A stretch of 64,000 bases of DNA from Bacteroidia bacterium (GCA_044229775.1 JBGASH010000001.1:10409-74408), one strand, 5' to 3'; counted from the first letter of the stretch, positions 9,984-62,449 are shown. A program made the numbers and translations. The notes: generated by a model not told the origin, from the sequence alone.

Positions 9984-10731
9984 GATATAGATCCCTGAGC
10001 TTTTTATATTTTAAATAAGTGGCGTAAGCAGAAATTTTTGAAATGGAAAATCCAGCCGTCCCGTCTAAAAATCCTAAATGCAAAAGGTAATGATCAATGA
10101 ATTTTGCCACAGGATTTAAAAATAATTTATAGAATGGCGCGCCAATGCCCTTTTCAAAATAAGCCTTAGAAGCAATGTTGGTAAAATATTCTACTTGTTT
10201 ATAATGATCTTCTATGCTGTAATAACTGTAATGTAGAATATCGCCCTTTAAAAAATCGGTGTTCTTGTCGCCATCAAATAATTCATATTTATCGTGCGGA
10301 TTAATGCCGGTCCATTTTCCTTTGGTGCTGTTCCATAATCGCAATTTGGTATCGGGATACCAATTGCAATGCTTCACCCAATGGCCGCAATAATTGGTTA
10401 GACGGTTCATATAATACCCATCCTTATCCATGTTTTTTTTAAGCTCGAGTATGGATCGTTTCAAAGCATCATCCAATGCCTCATCGGCGTCGAGCGACAA
10501 AACATAGGGGTATTTGGCATAAGTAATGGCGCGGTTCTTTTGTTCAATGTGTCCGTCGAACGCGTGTTCAAAAAAACGGGCGCCTTTTGAGAGACAGATC
10601 TCTTTGGTTTTGTCGTTGCTGAACGAATCGAGTATCACCACATCGTCGGCCACCTCTTTTACTGAATCGAGGCAGCGACCAATGTTTTTCTCTTCGTTAA
10701 AGGTTATTATTACGACCGAAATGGGAGACAT
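9967..10731 (-). CDS. Glycosyltransferase family 2
   Basis: SVVIITFNEEKNIGRCLDS...LSLDADE (DxD). Confidence 0.85.
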   Translation of the reverse strand: MSPISVVIITFNEEKNIGRCLDSVKEVADDVVILDSFSNDKTKEICLSKGARFFEHAFDGHIEQKNRAITYAKYPYVLSLDADEALDDALKRSILELKKNMDKDGYYMNRLTNYCGHWVKHCNWYPDTKLRLWNSTKGKWTGINPHDKYELFDGDKNTDFLKGDILHYSYYSIEDHYKQVEYFTNIASKAYFEKGIGAPFYKLFLNPVAKFIDHYLLHLGFLDGTAGFSISKISAYATYLKYKKLRDLYHAKTS

Positions 10732-14068: not shown

Positions 14069-17000
14069 ATGGAATACAACTTTAGAAAAATAGAAGAAAA
14101 GTGGCAAGCTATCTGGAAGGATAAAAAATCTTTCAAAACAGATAATAATTCAAGCAAACCGAAATATTATGTACTCGACATGTTTCCATATCCTTCGGGT
14201 GCCGGATTGCATGTGGGTCACCCATTAGGTTATATTGCCTCCGATATTATAGCGCGGTATAAACGCCATAAAGGATTTAATGTATTACACCCTATGGGGT
14301 ACGATAGTTTTGGATTACCGGCCGAACAGTATGCTATACAAACAGGACAACATCCTAAAATTACAACCGAACAAAACATTGCCCGTTACCGCGAGCAATT
14401 AGATAAAATTGGATTTTCGTTTGATTGGGATAGAGAAGTAAGAACATCTGACCCGTCGTATTACAAATGGACACAATGGATCTTTATACAATTATTTAAT
14501 TCGTGGTACGATCTTAAAAGCAATAAGGCCGAGAAGATAGAGACCCTAATTGCCGAATTTGAAAAAAGTGGCAATGGTAATATAAACGCACATTGTGAAG
14601 AAGGTACAAAAACATTTTCGGCAGAAGAGTGGAAAAACTATTCTGAAAAAGAAAGATCAGACGCCTTGATGCAATACCGCATTGCTTATTTGGGAGAAGC
14701 GTATGTGAATTGGTGTCCTGCTATGGGAACCGTATTAGCCAATGACGAAGTAAAGGATGGCGTAAGCGAACGCGGTGGTTATCCGGTTGAACGGAAATTA
14801 ATGAAGCAATGGAGCATGCGTATAACGGCCTACGCACAGCGGCTTTTGGATGGTTTGGATAAGATTGACTGGACCGAAAGTTTGAAGGAATCGCAACGCT
14901 ATTGGATAGGAAAAAGCGAGGGAACGAGTTTGAAGTTTAGGGTCCAGGACCTATCCCCGGCCCTTTCCAAAGGAAAGGGAGAAGAGGCAGCCGAAGGCAT
15001 TGACCCGGGTTATTTTACCACCGACGAGTTTACCTATAGGTTGTTACATGATAGAGCAGTGGAAATGAGAAAAAATCCAACCCCGGCAGAATCTGCGTTG
15101 TGGAAATCTTTAAAAGGAAATAAACTGGATGTTCATTTCAGGCAGCAACAAATAATAGGAAAATACATTGTAGATTTTGTTTGTTTGTCAAAAAAACTTG
15201 TGGTTGAGGTGGATGGAGATATACATGATCATCAAAAAGAAGAGGACGAACAAAGAACACGGGAATTGACACTTACGGGTTACAAAGTGATTCGATTCAA
15301 AAACGAAAAGGTATTAAATGAAATTGATGGTGTCCTGAGAGAAATTAGTTCCGAATTAGAAACGCAAAGTAAAGTCCTCCCCAAAGGGGAGGATTTAGGA
15401 GGGGTCATAGAGGTTTTCACAACACGACCCGATACCATCTTTGGCGTATCATTTGTTACTCTTGCTCCGGAGCATGAGTTAGTTGATAAAATTACAACGC
15501 CCGAACAAAAAGCGGCGGTGGATGATTACGTTAACAAATCAAAGAGCAGAAGTGAGCGTGAGCGACAAGCCGACGTGAATAAAGTGAGCGGCGTTTTTAC
15601 AGGTGCTTATGTAGAACACCCTTTTACAAAAAAACAAATTCCTATTTGGGTGGGCGATTATGTGTTGGCAGGTTATGGAACCGGAGCTGTTATGGCCGTA
15701 CCGGCGCACGATGAACGAGATTTTAAATTTGCCACGCATTTTGGTTTAGCAAAACCACAAGTGATTGTTCCGCCAACAGAACATGATCTTGAAAAGGCGT
15801 CGTGGGATGAAAAAGAAGGAAAGTTAATTAACTCCGATTTTTTAAACGGTCTCGAGGTAAAAGCAGCCATAAAAAAAGCCATTGAAGAAATTGAAAAGAA
15901 TAATTTAGGAAAAGGAAAAATAAATTACCGCCTGCGCGACGCGGTTTTTGGCCGTCAGCGTTATTGGGGAGAACCGATCCCTATCTTTTATAAAGATGGA
16001 ATTCCACATGCATTACCCGAAAGCGAATTACCATTGGTGTTACCCGAAGTAGATAAGTATTTACCAACCGAAGACGGCGAACCGCCTTTGGCCCGCGCTA
16101 CCAACTGGAAGTACACCCCTCTCCTTGGGAGAGGGGACGGGGGTGAGGCTTCTTACCCCTACGAATTAACCACCATGCCCGGTTGGGCTGGGAGCTCTTG
16201 GTATTTTTTGCGCTATATGGATGTGCATAACGACAAAACTTTTGCCGATAAAAAATTAATGGACTACTGGAAAAATGTAGACCTATACATTGGTGGCAGC
16301 GAACATGCTACCGGACATTTATTATATGTGCGTTTCTGGACCAAGTTTTTGCACGACTTAAATTATATTTCTATTGACGAACCTGCGCAGAAACTGATCA
16401 ATCAAGGGATGATACAGGGGCTGAGCGAGAAAATAATTAGATTAACGGCAAGGAATCCTAAAATAATTGATGGACATGAAAATTTGGATGAGGCTCTAGC
16501 AAATATTGAAAATAAAAGTGTTTCAATTCCTGAGGGAATTTCAAATGTGTTTATTAGTGCTGACGTAGTAGAAAGTCATAGAAGCCCTTTCTTGTCAACG
16601 GACAAACACGCAAGAGTTGATGATGTTGAGAATGGGGTATTGAATATTAGAAAGCATTTAAAATTTTGGAAAGAAGATAGTGACGCGGCTTTTGTTTGTT
16701 TAGGAGGGTATTGGAGAAATGGAGAATTCCATGGGAATGGCTCAGATCAATTCAAGACAATACAAGAAGTAGAAAAAATGTCTAAATCGAAACACAACGT
16801 TGTTTCACCTGACAATAAATTCGACGAATCTACTGGAGAAATTGTTCCCGGCATAATTGAAAAATTCGGCGCGGATACTTTGCGTTTGTACGAAATGTTT
16901 TTGGGTCCCCTTGAGCAAAGTAAACCCTGGAACACTAATGGTATTACCGGCGTTTCGGGTTTTTTGAAAAAATTGTGGAGACTGTTCTATATGTCCCCCG

Positions 17001-17518
17001 CTGGCGGGGGTGGCGAGACGGGGGTGGACATTACCGTAAGCTCAGCCGAACCGACCAAGCCCGAACTAAAAGCGCTACACAAAACCATTAAAAAAATTAC
17101 CGAAGACATAGAGCGTTTTTCGTTCAACACCTCGGTAAGTAATTTTATGATCTGTGTAAATGAATTAACCGACCTTAAATGTAATAAGAGAGCTATACTT
17201 GAACCGTTATTAATTATTTTATCGCCTTACGCGCCGCACATTACCGAAGAACTGTGGGAGAAACTAGGCCATAAAGAAAGCATAGCTTATGCTGAGTTTC
17301 CTATTTGTAACGAGAGTTATTTGGTAGAGAGTAATTTTAATTATCCTATTTCGTTCAATGGTAAAACCCGTTTCAATATCGAAATGCCCGCAACGTTAAG
17401 CATTCCCGAAATTGAGAAACTGGTAATGGAAGCCGAACAAACACATAAGTATTTAGAAGGTAAGCAACCTAAAAAGGTGATCGTGGTTCCTAAAAAAATT
17501 GTGAATATTGTAGTTTGA
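14069..17518 (+). CDS. leuS: Leucyl-tRNA synthetase carrying several in-frame insertions
   Basis: HIGH motif ([10 protein letters not shown]), editing-domain motif (TTRPDTIFG), KMSKS motif, [11 protein letters not shown]. At 1149 aa it is much longer than typical bacterial LeuRS. Confidence 0.95.
14951..15403 (+). mobile_element. DUF559/Vsr-like nuclease cassette translated in-frame within leuS
   Basis: About 151 extra codons lie between the [13 protein letters not shown] and TTRPDTIFG blocks. The core is homologous to ORF 62012-62449 (KYIVDF.C, V.E.DGDIH, I.RFKNE.VL). It is bounded by hairpins at 14961-14979 and 15376-15392. Boundaries are approximate. Confidence 0.65.
14961..14988 (+). repeat. 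GC-rich hairpin plus purine tail (left boundary of the leuS cassette)
   Basis: ccctttcc-aaa-ggaaaggg followed by agaagaggc. Confidence 0.6.
15376..15404 (+). repeat. GC-rich hairpin plus tail (right boundary of the leuS cassette)
   Basis: cctcccc-aaa-ggggagg followed by atttaggagggg. Confidence 0.6.
16116..16149 (+). repeat. Solo hairpin-tail element translated in-frame in leuS
   Basis: cccctctcc-ttg-ggagagggg followed by acgggggtgaggc. Encodes [12 protein letters not shown]. Nearly identical to the intergenic copy at 38197-38228 (opposite strand). Confidence 0.75.
16995..17028 (+). repeat. Solo hairpin-tail element translated in-frame in leuS
   Basis: cccccgc-tg-gcggggg followed by tggcgagacgggggtgga. 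Encodes [11 protein letters not shown]. Shares the acgggggtg tail with 16137-16145. Confidence 0.6.
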
Positions 17519-36853: not shown

Positions 36854-38194
36854 TTAAGCCATTACTTTTTTATACTTCTTATCATAATGACTTACGTCAT
36901 TGAACTTTTTACTCTTAGCTATTTCCAGAAACTCGTGTTTAAAATGGCGGATAGCCGCGGCTACCGGCCAGGCCGCTGCTTCACCCAATGGACAAATGGT
37001 TTTTCCTTCTATCTTACTTTGTATATCCCAAAGCAATTCAACATCGGCCTCGGTAGCTGTCCCATTTAAAAACTTCTTTAATATTTTCTCCATCCATCCA
37101 GTTCCCTCGCGGCAAGGCGAACATTGTCCGCAACTTTCGTGATGATAGAAACGCGTGAACGTAAATAAATTCTTTACAATGCTAGTATCCTCATCCATTA
37201 CAATGAATCCACCTGAACCTAACATGGTGCCGGTTTGAAATCCGCCATCCGATAAACTTTCGTAAGTCATTAAACGCGGTTCGCCTTTGGCAGTTTTTAA
37301 AATTAATTCGGTAGGTAGAATAGGAACGGAAGAACCACCGGCCACCACTGCTTTTAATTTTTTACCATGACGGATACCGCCGCAATATTCTTCACTATAA
37401 ATAAATTCCTCAACCGGAATTCCTAATTCAATTTCGTATGTACCCGGTTTATTGATGTGTCCCGAAGCAGAGATCAATTTTGTACCGGTTGATTTACCAA
37501 TTCCGATCTTCGCGTATTCTTCGCCACCCATCATTACAATAGGGCAAACTGCCGCTATGGTCTCAACGTTATTAACCACAGTAGGACAACCCCATAATCC
37601 GGCAACAGCAGGGAAGGGTGGTTTGATGCGTGGATTACCGCGCTTACCTTCTAACGATTCTAACAATCCGGTTTCTTCGCCGCAAATATAAGCGCCGCCT
37701 CCCACTTGCACGTAACAATCATGCGAGAAATTAGTTCCTAAAATATTTTTTCCTAACCATCCCGCCGCGTAAGCTTCTTTGATGGCGGTTTCTAAAATGC
37801 GCGCCACATAAAAATATTCGCCACGTATGTAGATGTAAGAGGTTTTTGCGCCGAGTGCATAAGAAGAAGTGATCATTCCTTCAATCAAAGCATGAGGGAT
37901 CACTTCCATTAAATAACGGTCTTTAAATGTGCCCGGCTCCGACTCATCCGCATTACAAACCAAATATCTTGGAACGCCTTCCGGTTTTGCGAGGAAACTC
38001 CATTTTAATCCGGTAGGGAAACCGGCACCACCTCGTCCGCGTAAACCCGATTTTTTTACTTCATCGGTCACCTGATCGGGGGTCATGTTTTTCAATGCTT
38101 TCTCCACCGAAGCGTAACCACCATGTGCGCGGTACACTTCCAGCGTGTGAATGTTTGGAACCTTATCGTTATGTATTAAAAGTTTTTTCCCCAT
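36854..38194 (-). CDS. nuoF: NADH-quinone oxidoreductase subunit F
   Basis: [20 protein letters not shown] site and [12 protein letters not shown] 4Fe-4S motif. I prefer the ATG at 38194. The GTG at 38203 lies inside the hairpin repeat. Confidence 0.92.
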
Positions 38195-38196
38195 TA

Positions 38197-38228
38197 GCCT
38201 CACCCCCCGCCCTCTCCTTTGGAGAGGG
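38197..38228 (-). repeat. Solo hairpin-tail element in the nuoE-nuoF spacer
   Basis: The minus strand reads ccctctcc-aaa-ggagaggg followed by cggggggtgaggct. Same family as 16116-16149. Confidence 0.75.
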
Positions 38229-38243
38229 AGCTGGATTTATTTT

Positions 38244-38825
38244 TCATAATGTGTTTTTATAATCTCTGTCGGTATAACTTCTTAACCGGTTCTCGCTTCT
38301 GTATTTTTCAATGAGAGCGTCCACTTTTTCGAAAGTAAGATTTTCGTGATAACTCGCGCCACACTGTAACATGGGGGCGGTACCGCAAGAACCTAAACAT
38401 TCGGCTGTTTTTAAAGTGAACATACCGTCTTTAGTGGTTTCTCCTACTTTAATATTTAATTTTTTCTCAATGTGTTTTACAATGTCTTCGGCGCCATTTA
38501 ACCAGCACGAGGAAGTTTGACATACTTCGAAAGTACATTTTCCTACGGGCTTTAAATGGAACATGGTATAAAAAGAAGCTACTTCAAAAACCTCTATGGG
38601 TTTTATTTTTAAAACTTCGGCTACGTAATCCATTGTTTCAGGACTTAACCATCCGCCAAATTCGGCCTGCGCAATGTGTAATACAGGAAGCAAAGCAGAT
38701 TTTATTTTTTCAGGAGGATAGTGAGAAATAATTTCTTTCACGTCTGCCATAGCGGCATCGCTGAACTTTAATTCTGTTCTCTTCTTTTTATCAAATGTTT
38801 GTGTTCCGTGTACTTCTGCTCCCAT
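38244..38825 (-). CDS. nuoE: NADH-quinone oxidoreductase subunit E
   Basis: 2Fe-2S thioredoxin-like motifs (CQTSSCWLNG, CLGSCGTAP). Confidence 0.9.
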   Translation of the reverse strand: MGAEVHGTQTFDKKKRTELKFSDAAMADVKEIISHYPPEKIKSALLPVLHIAQAEFGGWLSPETMDYVAEVLKIKPIEVFEVASFYTMFHLKPVGKCTFEVCQTSSCWLNGAEDIVKHIEKKLNIKVGETTKDGMFTLKTAECLGSCGTAPMLQCGASYHENLTFEKVDALIEKYRSENRLRSYTDRDYKNTL

Positions 38826-61967: not shown

Positions 61968-62443
61968 CCCTCTCCCTTGGGAGAGGGTAGGGTGAGGGTT
62001 AGAATTCAATAATGAAAACGAAAAGCTTACATCACTACAGTGCTCCCAAAAGCGCCTTTGAAAACGCTAAAATCCTTAGAAAAAATCAAACTAAAGCGGA
62101 ATGGTTATTTTGGCGGATAGTTTCAGGAAGAAAAATTCTGGGATTTAAATTCCGAAGACAACATCCAATTAGTAAGTATATTGTCGATTTTTATTGTCAG
62201 GAGGTTTTATTAGTGATAGAATTGGATGGGGATATTCACTATATTGAAAGCGTTAAAAGGTATGATAAAAAAAGAGAGGATGATTTGAAAAAACTTGGAC
62301 TAGAGATCATTAGGTTCAAAAATGAGGAGGTGCTTTTTGATACCGATAGAACAATTGAAAAATTAAAAGGAATTTTGAATACCTCGATGAAAGAGGAACC
62401 CTCATCCTCGATCCTTCTCCCATCGGGAGAAGGATGTGATCAC
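61968..62443 (+). mobile_element. Free-standing DUF559 cassette bounded by inverted hairpin-tail repeats
   Basis: Left end is ccctctcc-cttg-ggagaggg plus tagggtgaggg (61968-61998). Right end is ccctcatcc-tcgat plus ccttctccc-atc-gggagaagg (62409-62443), the same module in inverted orientation. Confidence 0.65.
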
Positions 62444-62449
62444 TGTTGA
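62012..62449 (+). CDS. DUF559 / Vsr-like endonuclease-domain protein
   Basis: RKNQTKAEWLFW, KYIVDFYC, VIELDGDIH, IIRFKNEEVL. The last ~15 codons (EEPSSSILLPSGEGCDHC) are encoded by the right terminal repeat. Confidence 0.8.
   Translation: MKTKSLHHYSAPKSAFENAKILRKNQTKAEWLFWRIVSGRKILGFKFRRQHPISKYIVDFYCQEVLLVIELDGDIHYIESVKRYDKKREDDLKKLGLEIIRFKNEEVLFDTDRTIEKLKGILNTSMKEEPSSSILLPSGEGCDHC

Follow-up and report, generated by a model that had tools for sequence, protein, structure and literature searches.

What are the two short hairpins, each followed by a tail, that are translated in the middle of a leuS gene, and how could they have come to lie in an essential reading frame? We addressed this in a 64-kb stretch of DNA from a Bacteroidia bacterium (GCA_044229775.1 JBGASH010000001.1:10409-74408), referred to below as the window, which has 39% G+C and Bacteroidia-like sequence, and whose leuS encodes leucyl-tRNA synthetase (LeuRS). 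We concluded that the element is a known structural kind in a new setting. It is a triplex motif (TM) of the BoxC/PIT/TMECO kind (Bergler 1992; Hoyne and Maher 2000; Holder et al. 2015, PMC4666352), which is here translated in essential genes, is concentrated in leuS, and forms the ends of cassettes with a DUF559 gene. The coding TM copies and the DUF559 link appear to be new, and in the literature that we searched we found neither of them described, nor any paper linking DUF559 to a tRNA synthetase or to repeats of this kind.

Design of the leuS elements

The initial annotation had described two hairpin-tail elements in leuS that are read through in frame, and both are present in the sequence and in its translation. 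The host gene was assigned from the list of open reading frames (ORFs) and the translation, from Pfam domains (tRNA-synt_1, the LeuRS editing domain and Anticodon_1), and from a match to Protein Data Bank (PDB) entry 1H3N at 8e-174. It has three TM-bearing insertions, and its ORF is continuous through all of them. The gene and its two solo elements are as follows.

14069..17518, + strand: leuS, the host gene (LeuRS, 1149 aa)
16116..16148, + strand: solo TM 1, with pyrimidine arm CCCCTCTCC, loop TTG, purine arm GGAGAGGGG, turn ACG and mirror strand GGGGTGAGG; from the sequence and the strict TM finder
16995..17028, + strand: solo TM 2, with arm CCCCCGC, loop TG, arm GCGGGGG, truncated second hairpin TGGCGAGAC and tail GGGGGTGG; from the sequence

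From 16116 to 16149 the DNA reads CCCCTCTCC-TTG-GGAGAGGGG-ACGGGGGTGAGGC. The whole solo 1 insert is 39 nt long (16116-16154) and is translated as a 13-aa peptide, residues 683-695 of LeuRS. Its blocks of 9, 3, 9, 3 and 9 nt follow the three-block layout with zero mismatches. Folding of its hairpin part gave -10 kcal/mol with z = -2.7.

The repeat is characterized by the relation of the tail to the hairpin. When several hundred copies taken from related loci are lined up, each tail proves to be the purine arm written backwards without complementing, that is, its mirror, and is nearly always separated from the arm by a turn of 3 nt; in this pairing G stands opposite G, and A opposite A or T. Among the pyrimidine-arm hairpins in all the DNA that we collected, the purine arm is mirrored in full, no more than 8 nt away, in 277 of 337, as compared with a null rate of 0.2% in random sequence. 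We observed the same rule in an ascertainment-free set of 184 hairpins lying outside the search pattern and having 68 distinct arms. Here 122 of the 170 asymmetric arms are fully mirrored, 102 of these 122 with a 3-nt turn, and mirrors outnumber direct repeats by 131 to 12. Arm and tail co-vary: GGAGAGGGG goes with GGGGTGAGG, GGAGAAGGG with GGGATGAGG, GGAAAGGG with GGGATAGG, GGGGAGGA with AGGAGGGG and GGGGAGAG with GAGAGGGG.

Because the tail mirrors the purine arm, the repeat belongs to the BoxC/PIT/TMECO kind of triplex motif, and its layout is, judging from the sequence, that of an intramolecular purine-motif triplex. A single strand would fold into the hairpin, to which the third strand would bind via G·G.C, A·A.T and T·A.T triads. 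Two other foldings were considered and rejected. A G-quadruplex was ruled out because the A positions co-vary base by base, and pairing of the tail with the pyrimidine arm as an alternative hairpin would, by inspection, leave two of nine positions mismatched and a third as a wobble. A covariance model was dropped in favour of an explicit three-block finder, since the mirror/triplex relation cannot be encoded in such a model.

Solo 2 reads CCCCCGC-TG-GCGGGGG-TGGCGAGACGGGGGTGGA over 16995-17028 and gives a 13-aa peptide at LeuRS residues 975-987. It falls outside the strict TM rule, its turn being 9 nt long, a remnant of the second hairpin seen in loci L038, L041 and L075. In this two-hairpin subfamily (e.g. 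L018, L038, L041 and L075) a small second hairpin, GTCGC-NNN-GCGAC, replaces the turn and the mirror rule is still kept. The solo 2 stem, CCCCCGC/GCGGGGG, holds one G.C inversion and is preserved by a compensatory pair, T.A to G.C relative to L038 and L075, and the tail GGGGGTGG is a mirror of the arm but for one T, which stands opposite the new C. Solo 2 is read as a decayed member of the two-hairpin subfamily, distinct from the subfamily of solo 1. The suggestion that one repeat family occurs both between and within genes is right as to location (copies lie in a spacer, at cassette ends and in leuS), but the two solos are of different subfamilies.

The strict hairpin plus mirror-tail finder returned six copies in the 64 kb, whereas 60 simulated windows had a mean of 0.20, and four of the six are the ends of two DUF559 cassettes. 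Perfect G/C-rich hairpins of 7 bp or more number exactly five in the window, and every one is of the TM family. The tail 9-mer GGGGTGAGG by itself is not significant in the window (6 matches with one mismatch allowed, 4.6 expected); significance is reached by the composite motif alone. A scan of the window with Rfam gave no match and no intron.

Insertion into leuS and occurrence elsewhere

L202, which at 75% aa identity is the closest leuS relative that we found, shares the DUF559 cassette of the editing domain but is without both solo elements. At site 1, the position of solo 1, it has 9 nt (AAA AAC CAA) versus 39 nt in the window, and at site 2, that of solo 2, 42 nt are lacking. An alignment of 120 LeuRS orthologues (61-75% identity) confirmed the presence or absence of both inserts across the set.

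Site 1 (120 orthologues): empty 78; TM or other short insert 20; full DUF559 cassette 22
Site 2 (120 orthologues): empty 62; TM or other short insert 58; full DUF559 cassette 0

As the closest relative and the majority of orthologues have nothing comparable at either site, both solo segments are, on the alignment, insertions into leuS; this status is well established, as is the identity of the element. The initial annotation had placed the peptides in regions that vary between LeuRS orthologues, which agrees with these counts, and the peptides are not conserved in distant orthologues. One of the empty leuS sites reads TGGAAATACAAAGGNGAATAC.

We observed that the site states are patchy, being scattered over the LeuRS tree. 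Even between nearest-neighbour LeuRS pairs (90.6% core identity), the state differs in 23 to 44 of 120 comparisons per site, with 23/120 at site 1 and 31/120 at site 2. At the DNA level, the same TM stands at site 1 in forward orientation in 8 loci and in reverse orientation in another 3, and the site also holds other subfamilies and left-end relics of cassettes, while the short inserts at site 2 comprise several subfamilies and some unrelated repeats. Between genomes, the element has 80-94% nucleotide identity, as compared with 57-81% for the flanking leuS codons.

At site 2 of L076:12323-12490, and also in L050, L077, L004 and L034, a different repeat family is found; the unrelated repeats at this site include LSGVEG-type hairpins and STPLSVT units in tandem (GCTTCGACTCCGCTCAGCGTGAC-like). 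As several unrelated selfish repeats occupy site 2, the loop evidently tolerates them.

On the alignment with the Thermus thermophilus enzyme (1H3N), site 1 falls in the segment that there holds a CxxC knuckle, assigned to a zinc module, and site 2 falls in the linker preceding the anticodon-binding helices. The AlphaFold2 model of the window LeuRS was poor (predicted local distance difference test score, pLDDT, 65; predicted template modelling score, pTM, 0.37) and was used only for local contrast in pLDDT: all four TM-encoded peptides are below 50 and without secondary structure, and the DUF559 domain is at 84-93. A long, weakly conserved insertion before the KMSKS motif (16420-16800, LeuRS aa about 786-900) has no relation to the TMs; across nearly all 120 orthologues both its length and its sequence vary.

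That leuS looks like an insertion hotspot was borne out in 80 leuS loci from related genomes with 10-kb flanks, drawn by a query that itself held DUF559 and TM peptides. Pyrimidine-arm hairpins number 107 in 252 kb of leuS as compared with 16 in 1261 kb of flanks, i.e. about 33 times denser. Solo TMs occur at 0.11-0.23 per kb in leuS and at 0.004 per kb in the flanks (5 in 1.24 Mb), with 0.78 per leuS gene that carries DUF559 and 0.33 per gene that does not. At least six leuS insertion sites are in use.

The repeat is not unique to these loci. An unbiased metagenome pattern scan returned at least 120 stretches of 30-64% G+C. Among the matches listed there are 145 copies, of which 102 (about 70%) are non-coding and 43 (about 30%) lie within long ORFs, just 6 of these 43 being in LeuRS. 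The coding hosts identified by Pfam are MetH, HsdR, PurL, AspRS, a TonB-dependent receptor and a protein sorted by the type IX secretion system (T9SS), and ORF-less inverted doublets are common among the metagenome copies. Full in-frame DUF559 cassettes with outward-tailed TMs were found in MetH and HsdR: one lies within the activation domain of a B12-dependent methionine synthase (L085:3424-7683) and the other within a type I restriction R subunit (L180:3-2753).

Viral contigs were considered as vectors and rejected, TMs being present on them with no DUF559 beside them. One stretch classed as viral in IMG/VR (L252:10425-11881) has TM doublets about every 330 bp in a tandem array, with no DUF559 match.

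DUF559 cassettes and the proposed spread of the elements

The remaining TMs of the window and the two DUF559 reading frames are as follows.

14950..14979, - strand: left-end TM of the in-frame cassette, CCCTTTCC-ttt-GGAAAGGG-ccg-GGGATAGG; tail outward
15026..15364, + strand: in-frame DUF559 (PF04480), a Vsr-like PD-(D/E)XK nuclease domain, Pfam E = 1.8e-34; at the start of the LeuRS editing domain
15375..15404, + strand: right-end TM of the in-frame cassette, TCCTCCCC-aaa-GGGGAGGA-ttt-AGGAGGGG; tail outward
38198..38228, - strand: intergenic TM in the nuoE-nuoF spacer, CCCTCTCC-aaa-GGAGAGGG-cggg-GGGTGAGG; from the strict finder
61968..61998, + strand: TM 5' of the free-standing DUF559 ORF, CCCTCTCCC-tt-GGGAGAGGG-ta-GGGTGAGGG; tail inward
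62012..62449, + strand: free-standing DUF559 ORF (145 aa), Pfam E = 5.4e-32; between radA and the gene of an SLT-domain protein
62399..62434, - strand: TM 3' of the free-standing DUF559 ORF, TCCTTCTCCC-gat-GGGAGAAGGA-tcg-AGGATGAGGG; tail inward

The copy to the left of the free-standing DUF559 ORF is real, as had been noted. The spacer copy, whose flanking genes are nuoE and nuoF by Pfam, is real too, but it is not almost identical to solo 1 as had been thought: the two are about 80% identical and differ in loop and turn. In this region (38194-38247) the mechanical ORF list has nuoF start at the GTG at 38203, inside the TM tail, the likely true start being the ATG at 38194, and a 15-codon ORF that overlaps the nuoE stop codon passes through the TM. 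As the nuoF example suggests, gene starts may be mis-set in annotation by TM repeats.

The in-frame cassette spans 14950-15404 (leuS aa about 294-446), and its DUF559 domain matches PDB 3HRL at 3e-18 and the homing endonuclease I-Bth0305I (3R3P) at 0.002. In the leuS ORF, Pfam finds the LeuRS domains and DUF559 only, and no splicing domain. DUF559 is present at the editing-domain site in 64 of the 120 orthologues and at solo site 1 in 22, and two proteins of about 1260 aa have both cassettes together. The cassettes occupy two fixed leuS sites (the editing-domain start and site 1) in a patchy pattern, and their nuclease residues are conserved: the putative residues D369, E380, D382, H386, D393, R396 and N412 are invariant or nearly so in the 64 in-frame copies.

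In the loci scored for flanking TMs, at least one TM flanks 47 of the 50 DUF559 matches, the other three having none on either side. The orientation is fixed: the 26 complete in-frame cassettes have their tails outward and the 4 complete free-standing ones have them inward. At least two types of cassette ends exist, intermixed among close LeuRS relatives. In L020, a solo copy 414 bp downstream of the cassette is identical over 39 nt to the right end of the cassette in the same leuS. A free-standing DUF559 ORF with inward-tailed TMs (arm TCCCCTCT) lies directly upstream of leuS in L027, L063 and L067 (around 10001-10360); with three such genomes, the gene neighbourhood is therefore used too, besides the coding sequence.

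The explanation that we favour, with modest confidence, is that both segments are selfish TM repeats inserted into leuS, that they are modules of the DUF559 cassettes, and that they probably spread by DUF559-dependent homing-like copying. We infer the mobilising mechanism and the enzyme as follows. Transient single-stranded DNA, as opposed to RNA, would be where the hairpin or triplex arises. DUF559-dependent cleavage would be followed by repair-mediated copying, by which modules and cassettes would spread in a homing-like manner. LeuRS would be made with the nuclease as one of its internal domains, leuS would be the preferred home, and ORF-less singlets such as solo 1 and solo 2 would be the non-autonomous form. 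Selection would retain only in-frame, stop-free copies in tolerant loops. On this reading the solo copies survive in essential leuS because their net length is a multiple of three, their frame is free of stops and they lie in variable surface loops, to which they add Pro/Gly/Ser-rich peptides.

Several observations weigh against this explanation. Comparison of the solo sites with the empty allele revealed neither a duplication of the target site nor a target motif common to them. The TM type of solo 1 is that of the editing-domain cassette ends and not that flanking the site-1 cassettes. The query with DUF559 and TM peptides inflates the counts within the gene, although not the low density in the flanks. 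In IMG/VR, 70 stretches with TMs had no DUF559 match, so that TMs far outnumber DUF559 genes; conversely, among 19 IMG/VR loci chosen by DUF559 similarity alone, flanking TMs were found in 2, and none in 15 high-GC contigs. The triplex was not detected in double-stranded DNA or in vivo (PMC4666352). Lastly, the in-frame DUF559 of the window departs from the consensus by R359Q and H361Q, at nearly invariant positions.

At these positions (15143-15151, aa 359-361) the window has FRQQQ versus FRRQH in the 64 copies, the two residues being 98% and 94% conserved, and the window domain may be decaying. The high-GC IMG/VR contigs (L276-L292) are about 15 small contigs of 4-9 kb and 70-73% G+C, with DUF559 near one contig end and without TMs; possibly they represent a separate family of small replicons or phages.

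More tentatively, and as a possibility that falls short of being probable, BoxC/PIT-type TMs in general could be the ends and, as singlets and doublets, the non-autonomous forms of an unrecognised class of mobile element, whose autonomous form would encode a Vsr-like, EDxHD-related DUF559 endonuclease and would home into conserved housekeeping genes (leuS, metH and hsdR) without intron or intein. The nuclease would then be an internal domain of the host protein, and the TMs would double as Pro/Gly-rich linker codons.

The best surviving alternative, which we find rather doubtful, is that TM singlets move or arise without DUF559, through polymerase stalling with template switching or slippage or through some transposase, and that DUF559 is a passenger homing endonuclease landing on TM pairs. 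The abundance of TMs with no DUF559 nearby speaks for such a route, as do the lack of TMs at most of the DUF559 genes in high-GC contigs and the 23 TMECOs of E. coli set against a single DUF559 gene. ORF-less inverted doublets occur with tails outward or inward (E. coli TMECO 1+2), either of which could be a pre-existing target. A passenger that lands on TM pairs is harder to reconcile with the fixed orientation of the 26 in-frame and 4 free-standing cassettes, with the denser solo TMs in leuS genes that carry DUF559 (0.78 versus 0.33 per gene), and with the exact cassette-end copy nearby in L020.

It is unlikely that the solo elements are remnants of full DUF559 cassettes after loss of the ORF, as in the degeneration phase of a homing cycle. 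Relics of this kind do exist: in L047 the left tail, one hairpin and a right tail in decay survive, which is what deletion between palindromic hairpins would leave, the left end alone is kept in L074 and L064, and P0090 and P0108 have doublet relics at the editing-domain site. Among the 120 orthologues, 22 have a full cassette at site 1, and the 3' junction of solo 1 (GCTTCT TAC CC, AS-YP) matches those cassettes. Solo 1, however, is one-tailed and of an arm type that differs from both site-1 cassette ends, the same TM stands in the opposite orientation at site 1 in L014, L015 and L045, and site 2 has no full cassette in any of the 120 proteins.

We consider it very improbable that the insertions are kept for a host benefit, be it as surface peptides of LeuRS or as DNA or mRNA structures tuning leuS expression. 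The intact hairpin and mirror strand of solo 1 and the compensatory pair that maintains the solo 2 stem would fit such a role. Yet both elements are absent in the closest relative and patchy elsewhere, different subfamilies and both orientations yield unrelated peptides at the same site, and it is the nucleotides that are conserved and not the peptides. In addition, neither promoter nor terminator activity was found for PIT elements, a purine-motif triplex cannot form in RNA (PMC4666352), and no Rfam match was found. Chance G/C-rich hairpins or assembly artefacts, which the shortness of the repeats and the origin of the window in a metagenome-assembled genome might suggest, are effectively refuted by the six strict copies against 0.2 expected, by the intact reading frames, and by the recurrence of the same elements, codon for codon in position, across dozens of assemblies made independently.

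For three decades, since 1992, BoxC/PIT/TMECO repeats have been on record without a function or a mobility mechanism. The turnover described here is quick, at a few fixed leuS sites across many Bacteroidia. A candidate enzyme (including E. coli YcjD) and a candidate substrate are now named, and the mobile-element proposal, if true, would supply the missing mobility function of the BoxC/PIT family. The in-frame cassettes also represent a way for an endonuclease gene to live within an essential gene without splicing. For annotation, the repeats mean spurious Gly/Pro-rich peptides, mis-set start codons and oversized "LeuRS" in metagenome-assembled genomes.

Comparison with known systems

The TMECO pattern is CCCTCNCCC N3-6 GGGNGAGGG N3 GGGNGAGGG (Holder et al. 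2015, PMC4666352). In single-stranded DNA it forms a stable triplex in vitro and arrests polymerase, and in E. coli it marks variable loci (PMC4666352). In the window TM at 61968-61998, each of the three 9-nt blocks is the same as its counterpart in E. coli TMECO type A (Table 1 of PMC4666352), and both loops are 2 nt long. The blocks of solo 1, CCCCTCTCC, GGAGAGGGG and GGGGTGAGG, are related to the pattern but in a different register (CCCCTCTCC versus CCCTCNCCC). The Bacteroidia TMs share with TMECO the class II purine motif, TTA- and CCG-type second loops, inverted doublets and a multi-copy, dispersed occurrence. They differ in showing many arm variants and a two-hairpin subfamily, in being translated within essential genes and in forming the ends of DUF559 cassettes. 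The 23 E. coli TMECOs are reported to be all intergenic, with mobility functions never found near them (PMC4666352); in the window, solo 1, solo 2 and both ends of the in-frame cassette lie within leuS.

E. coli also has a DUF559 gene, ycjD, which is the sole copy found in each genome having it; K-12 has one, and it is present in 3378 of 5426 complete E. coli genomes (absent from 38%). It lies about 170 bp from a type A TMECO/BoxC in the ycjD-fabI spacer (L201:16040-16840, E. coli K-12), and given a genome of 4.64 Mb with 23 TMECOs, we estimate that a TMECO would fall so near by chance with a probability of about 0.004. The stop codon of ycjD coincides with a degenerate hairpin, and between this hairpin and the TMECO part of the ycjD 3' end is present again as a duplicate. 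An empty site was sought in strains without ycjD; in the ST131 strain examined, other genes take the place of the entire sapF-ycjD side.

The analogy to Rickettsia palindromic elements (RPEs), which the initial annotation had drawn, is good for behaviour only. Both are selfish palindromic repeats that occur between genes and in frame in housekeeping genes, at tolerated sites in tolerant loops. RPEs, which we set apart by description, are about 100-150 bp long, encode a conserved peptide, are confined to Rickettsia, and have neither a mirror/triplex design nor an associated nuclease gene. The TM elements are 33-42 nt long, have Bacteroidia as hosts, and give peptides that differ with orientation and frame.

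Repetitive extragenic palindromic (REP) elements and REPINs resemble the TMs as short G/C-rich palindromes found as singlets and inverted doublets with occasional copies in genes, and a REP-associated tyrosine transposase (RAYT) is likewise a single-copy gene flanked by inverted repeats. Unlike in REP/RAYT systems, the TM-flanked gene is a PD-(D/E)XK DUF559 nuclease and not a Y1 transposase, and REPs have no mirror strand. No GTAG or CGTC tag is conserved in the listed TM copies, in which the turn varies (ctg, ccg, tta, ttt, caa), and no RAYT was found at the TM-flanked ORFs, the ORF being DUF559 (PF04480), whole genomes not having been screened for RAYT. As regards MITEs (transposable elements of the miniature inverted-repeat kind), the doublets and the cassettes have inverted TM ends, the two solo sites show no duplication, and singlets are one-ended.

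The cassettes also resemble the EDxHD/Vsr-like homing endonucleases such as I-Bth0305I. They belong to a related nuclease family, occupy fixed sites in conserved essential genes, are patchy among close relatives, and show one cassette type replaced by another. Unlike the homing endonucleases of introns and inteins, the DUF559 cassette has no intron and no intein around it, and is translated as an internal domain between TM-encoded linkers.

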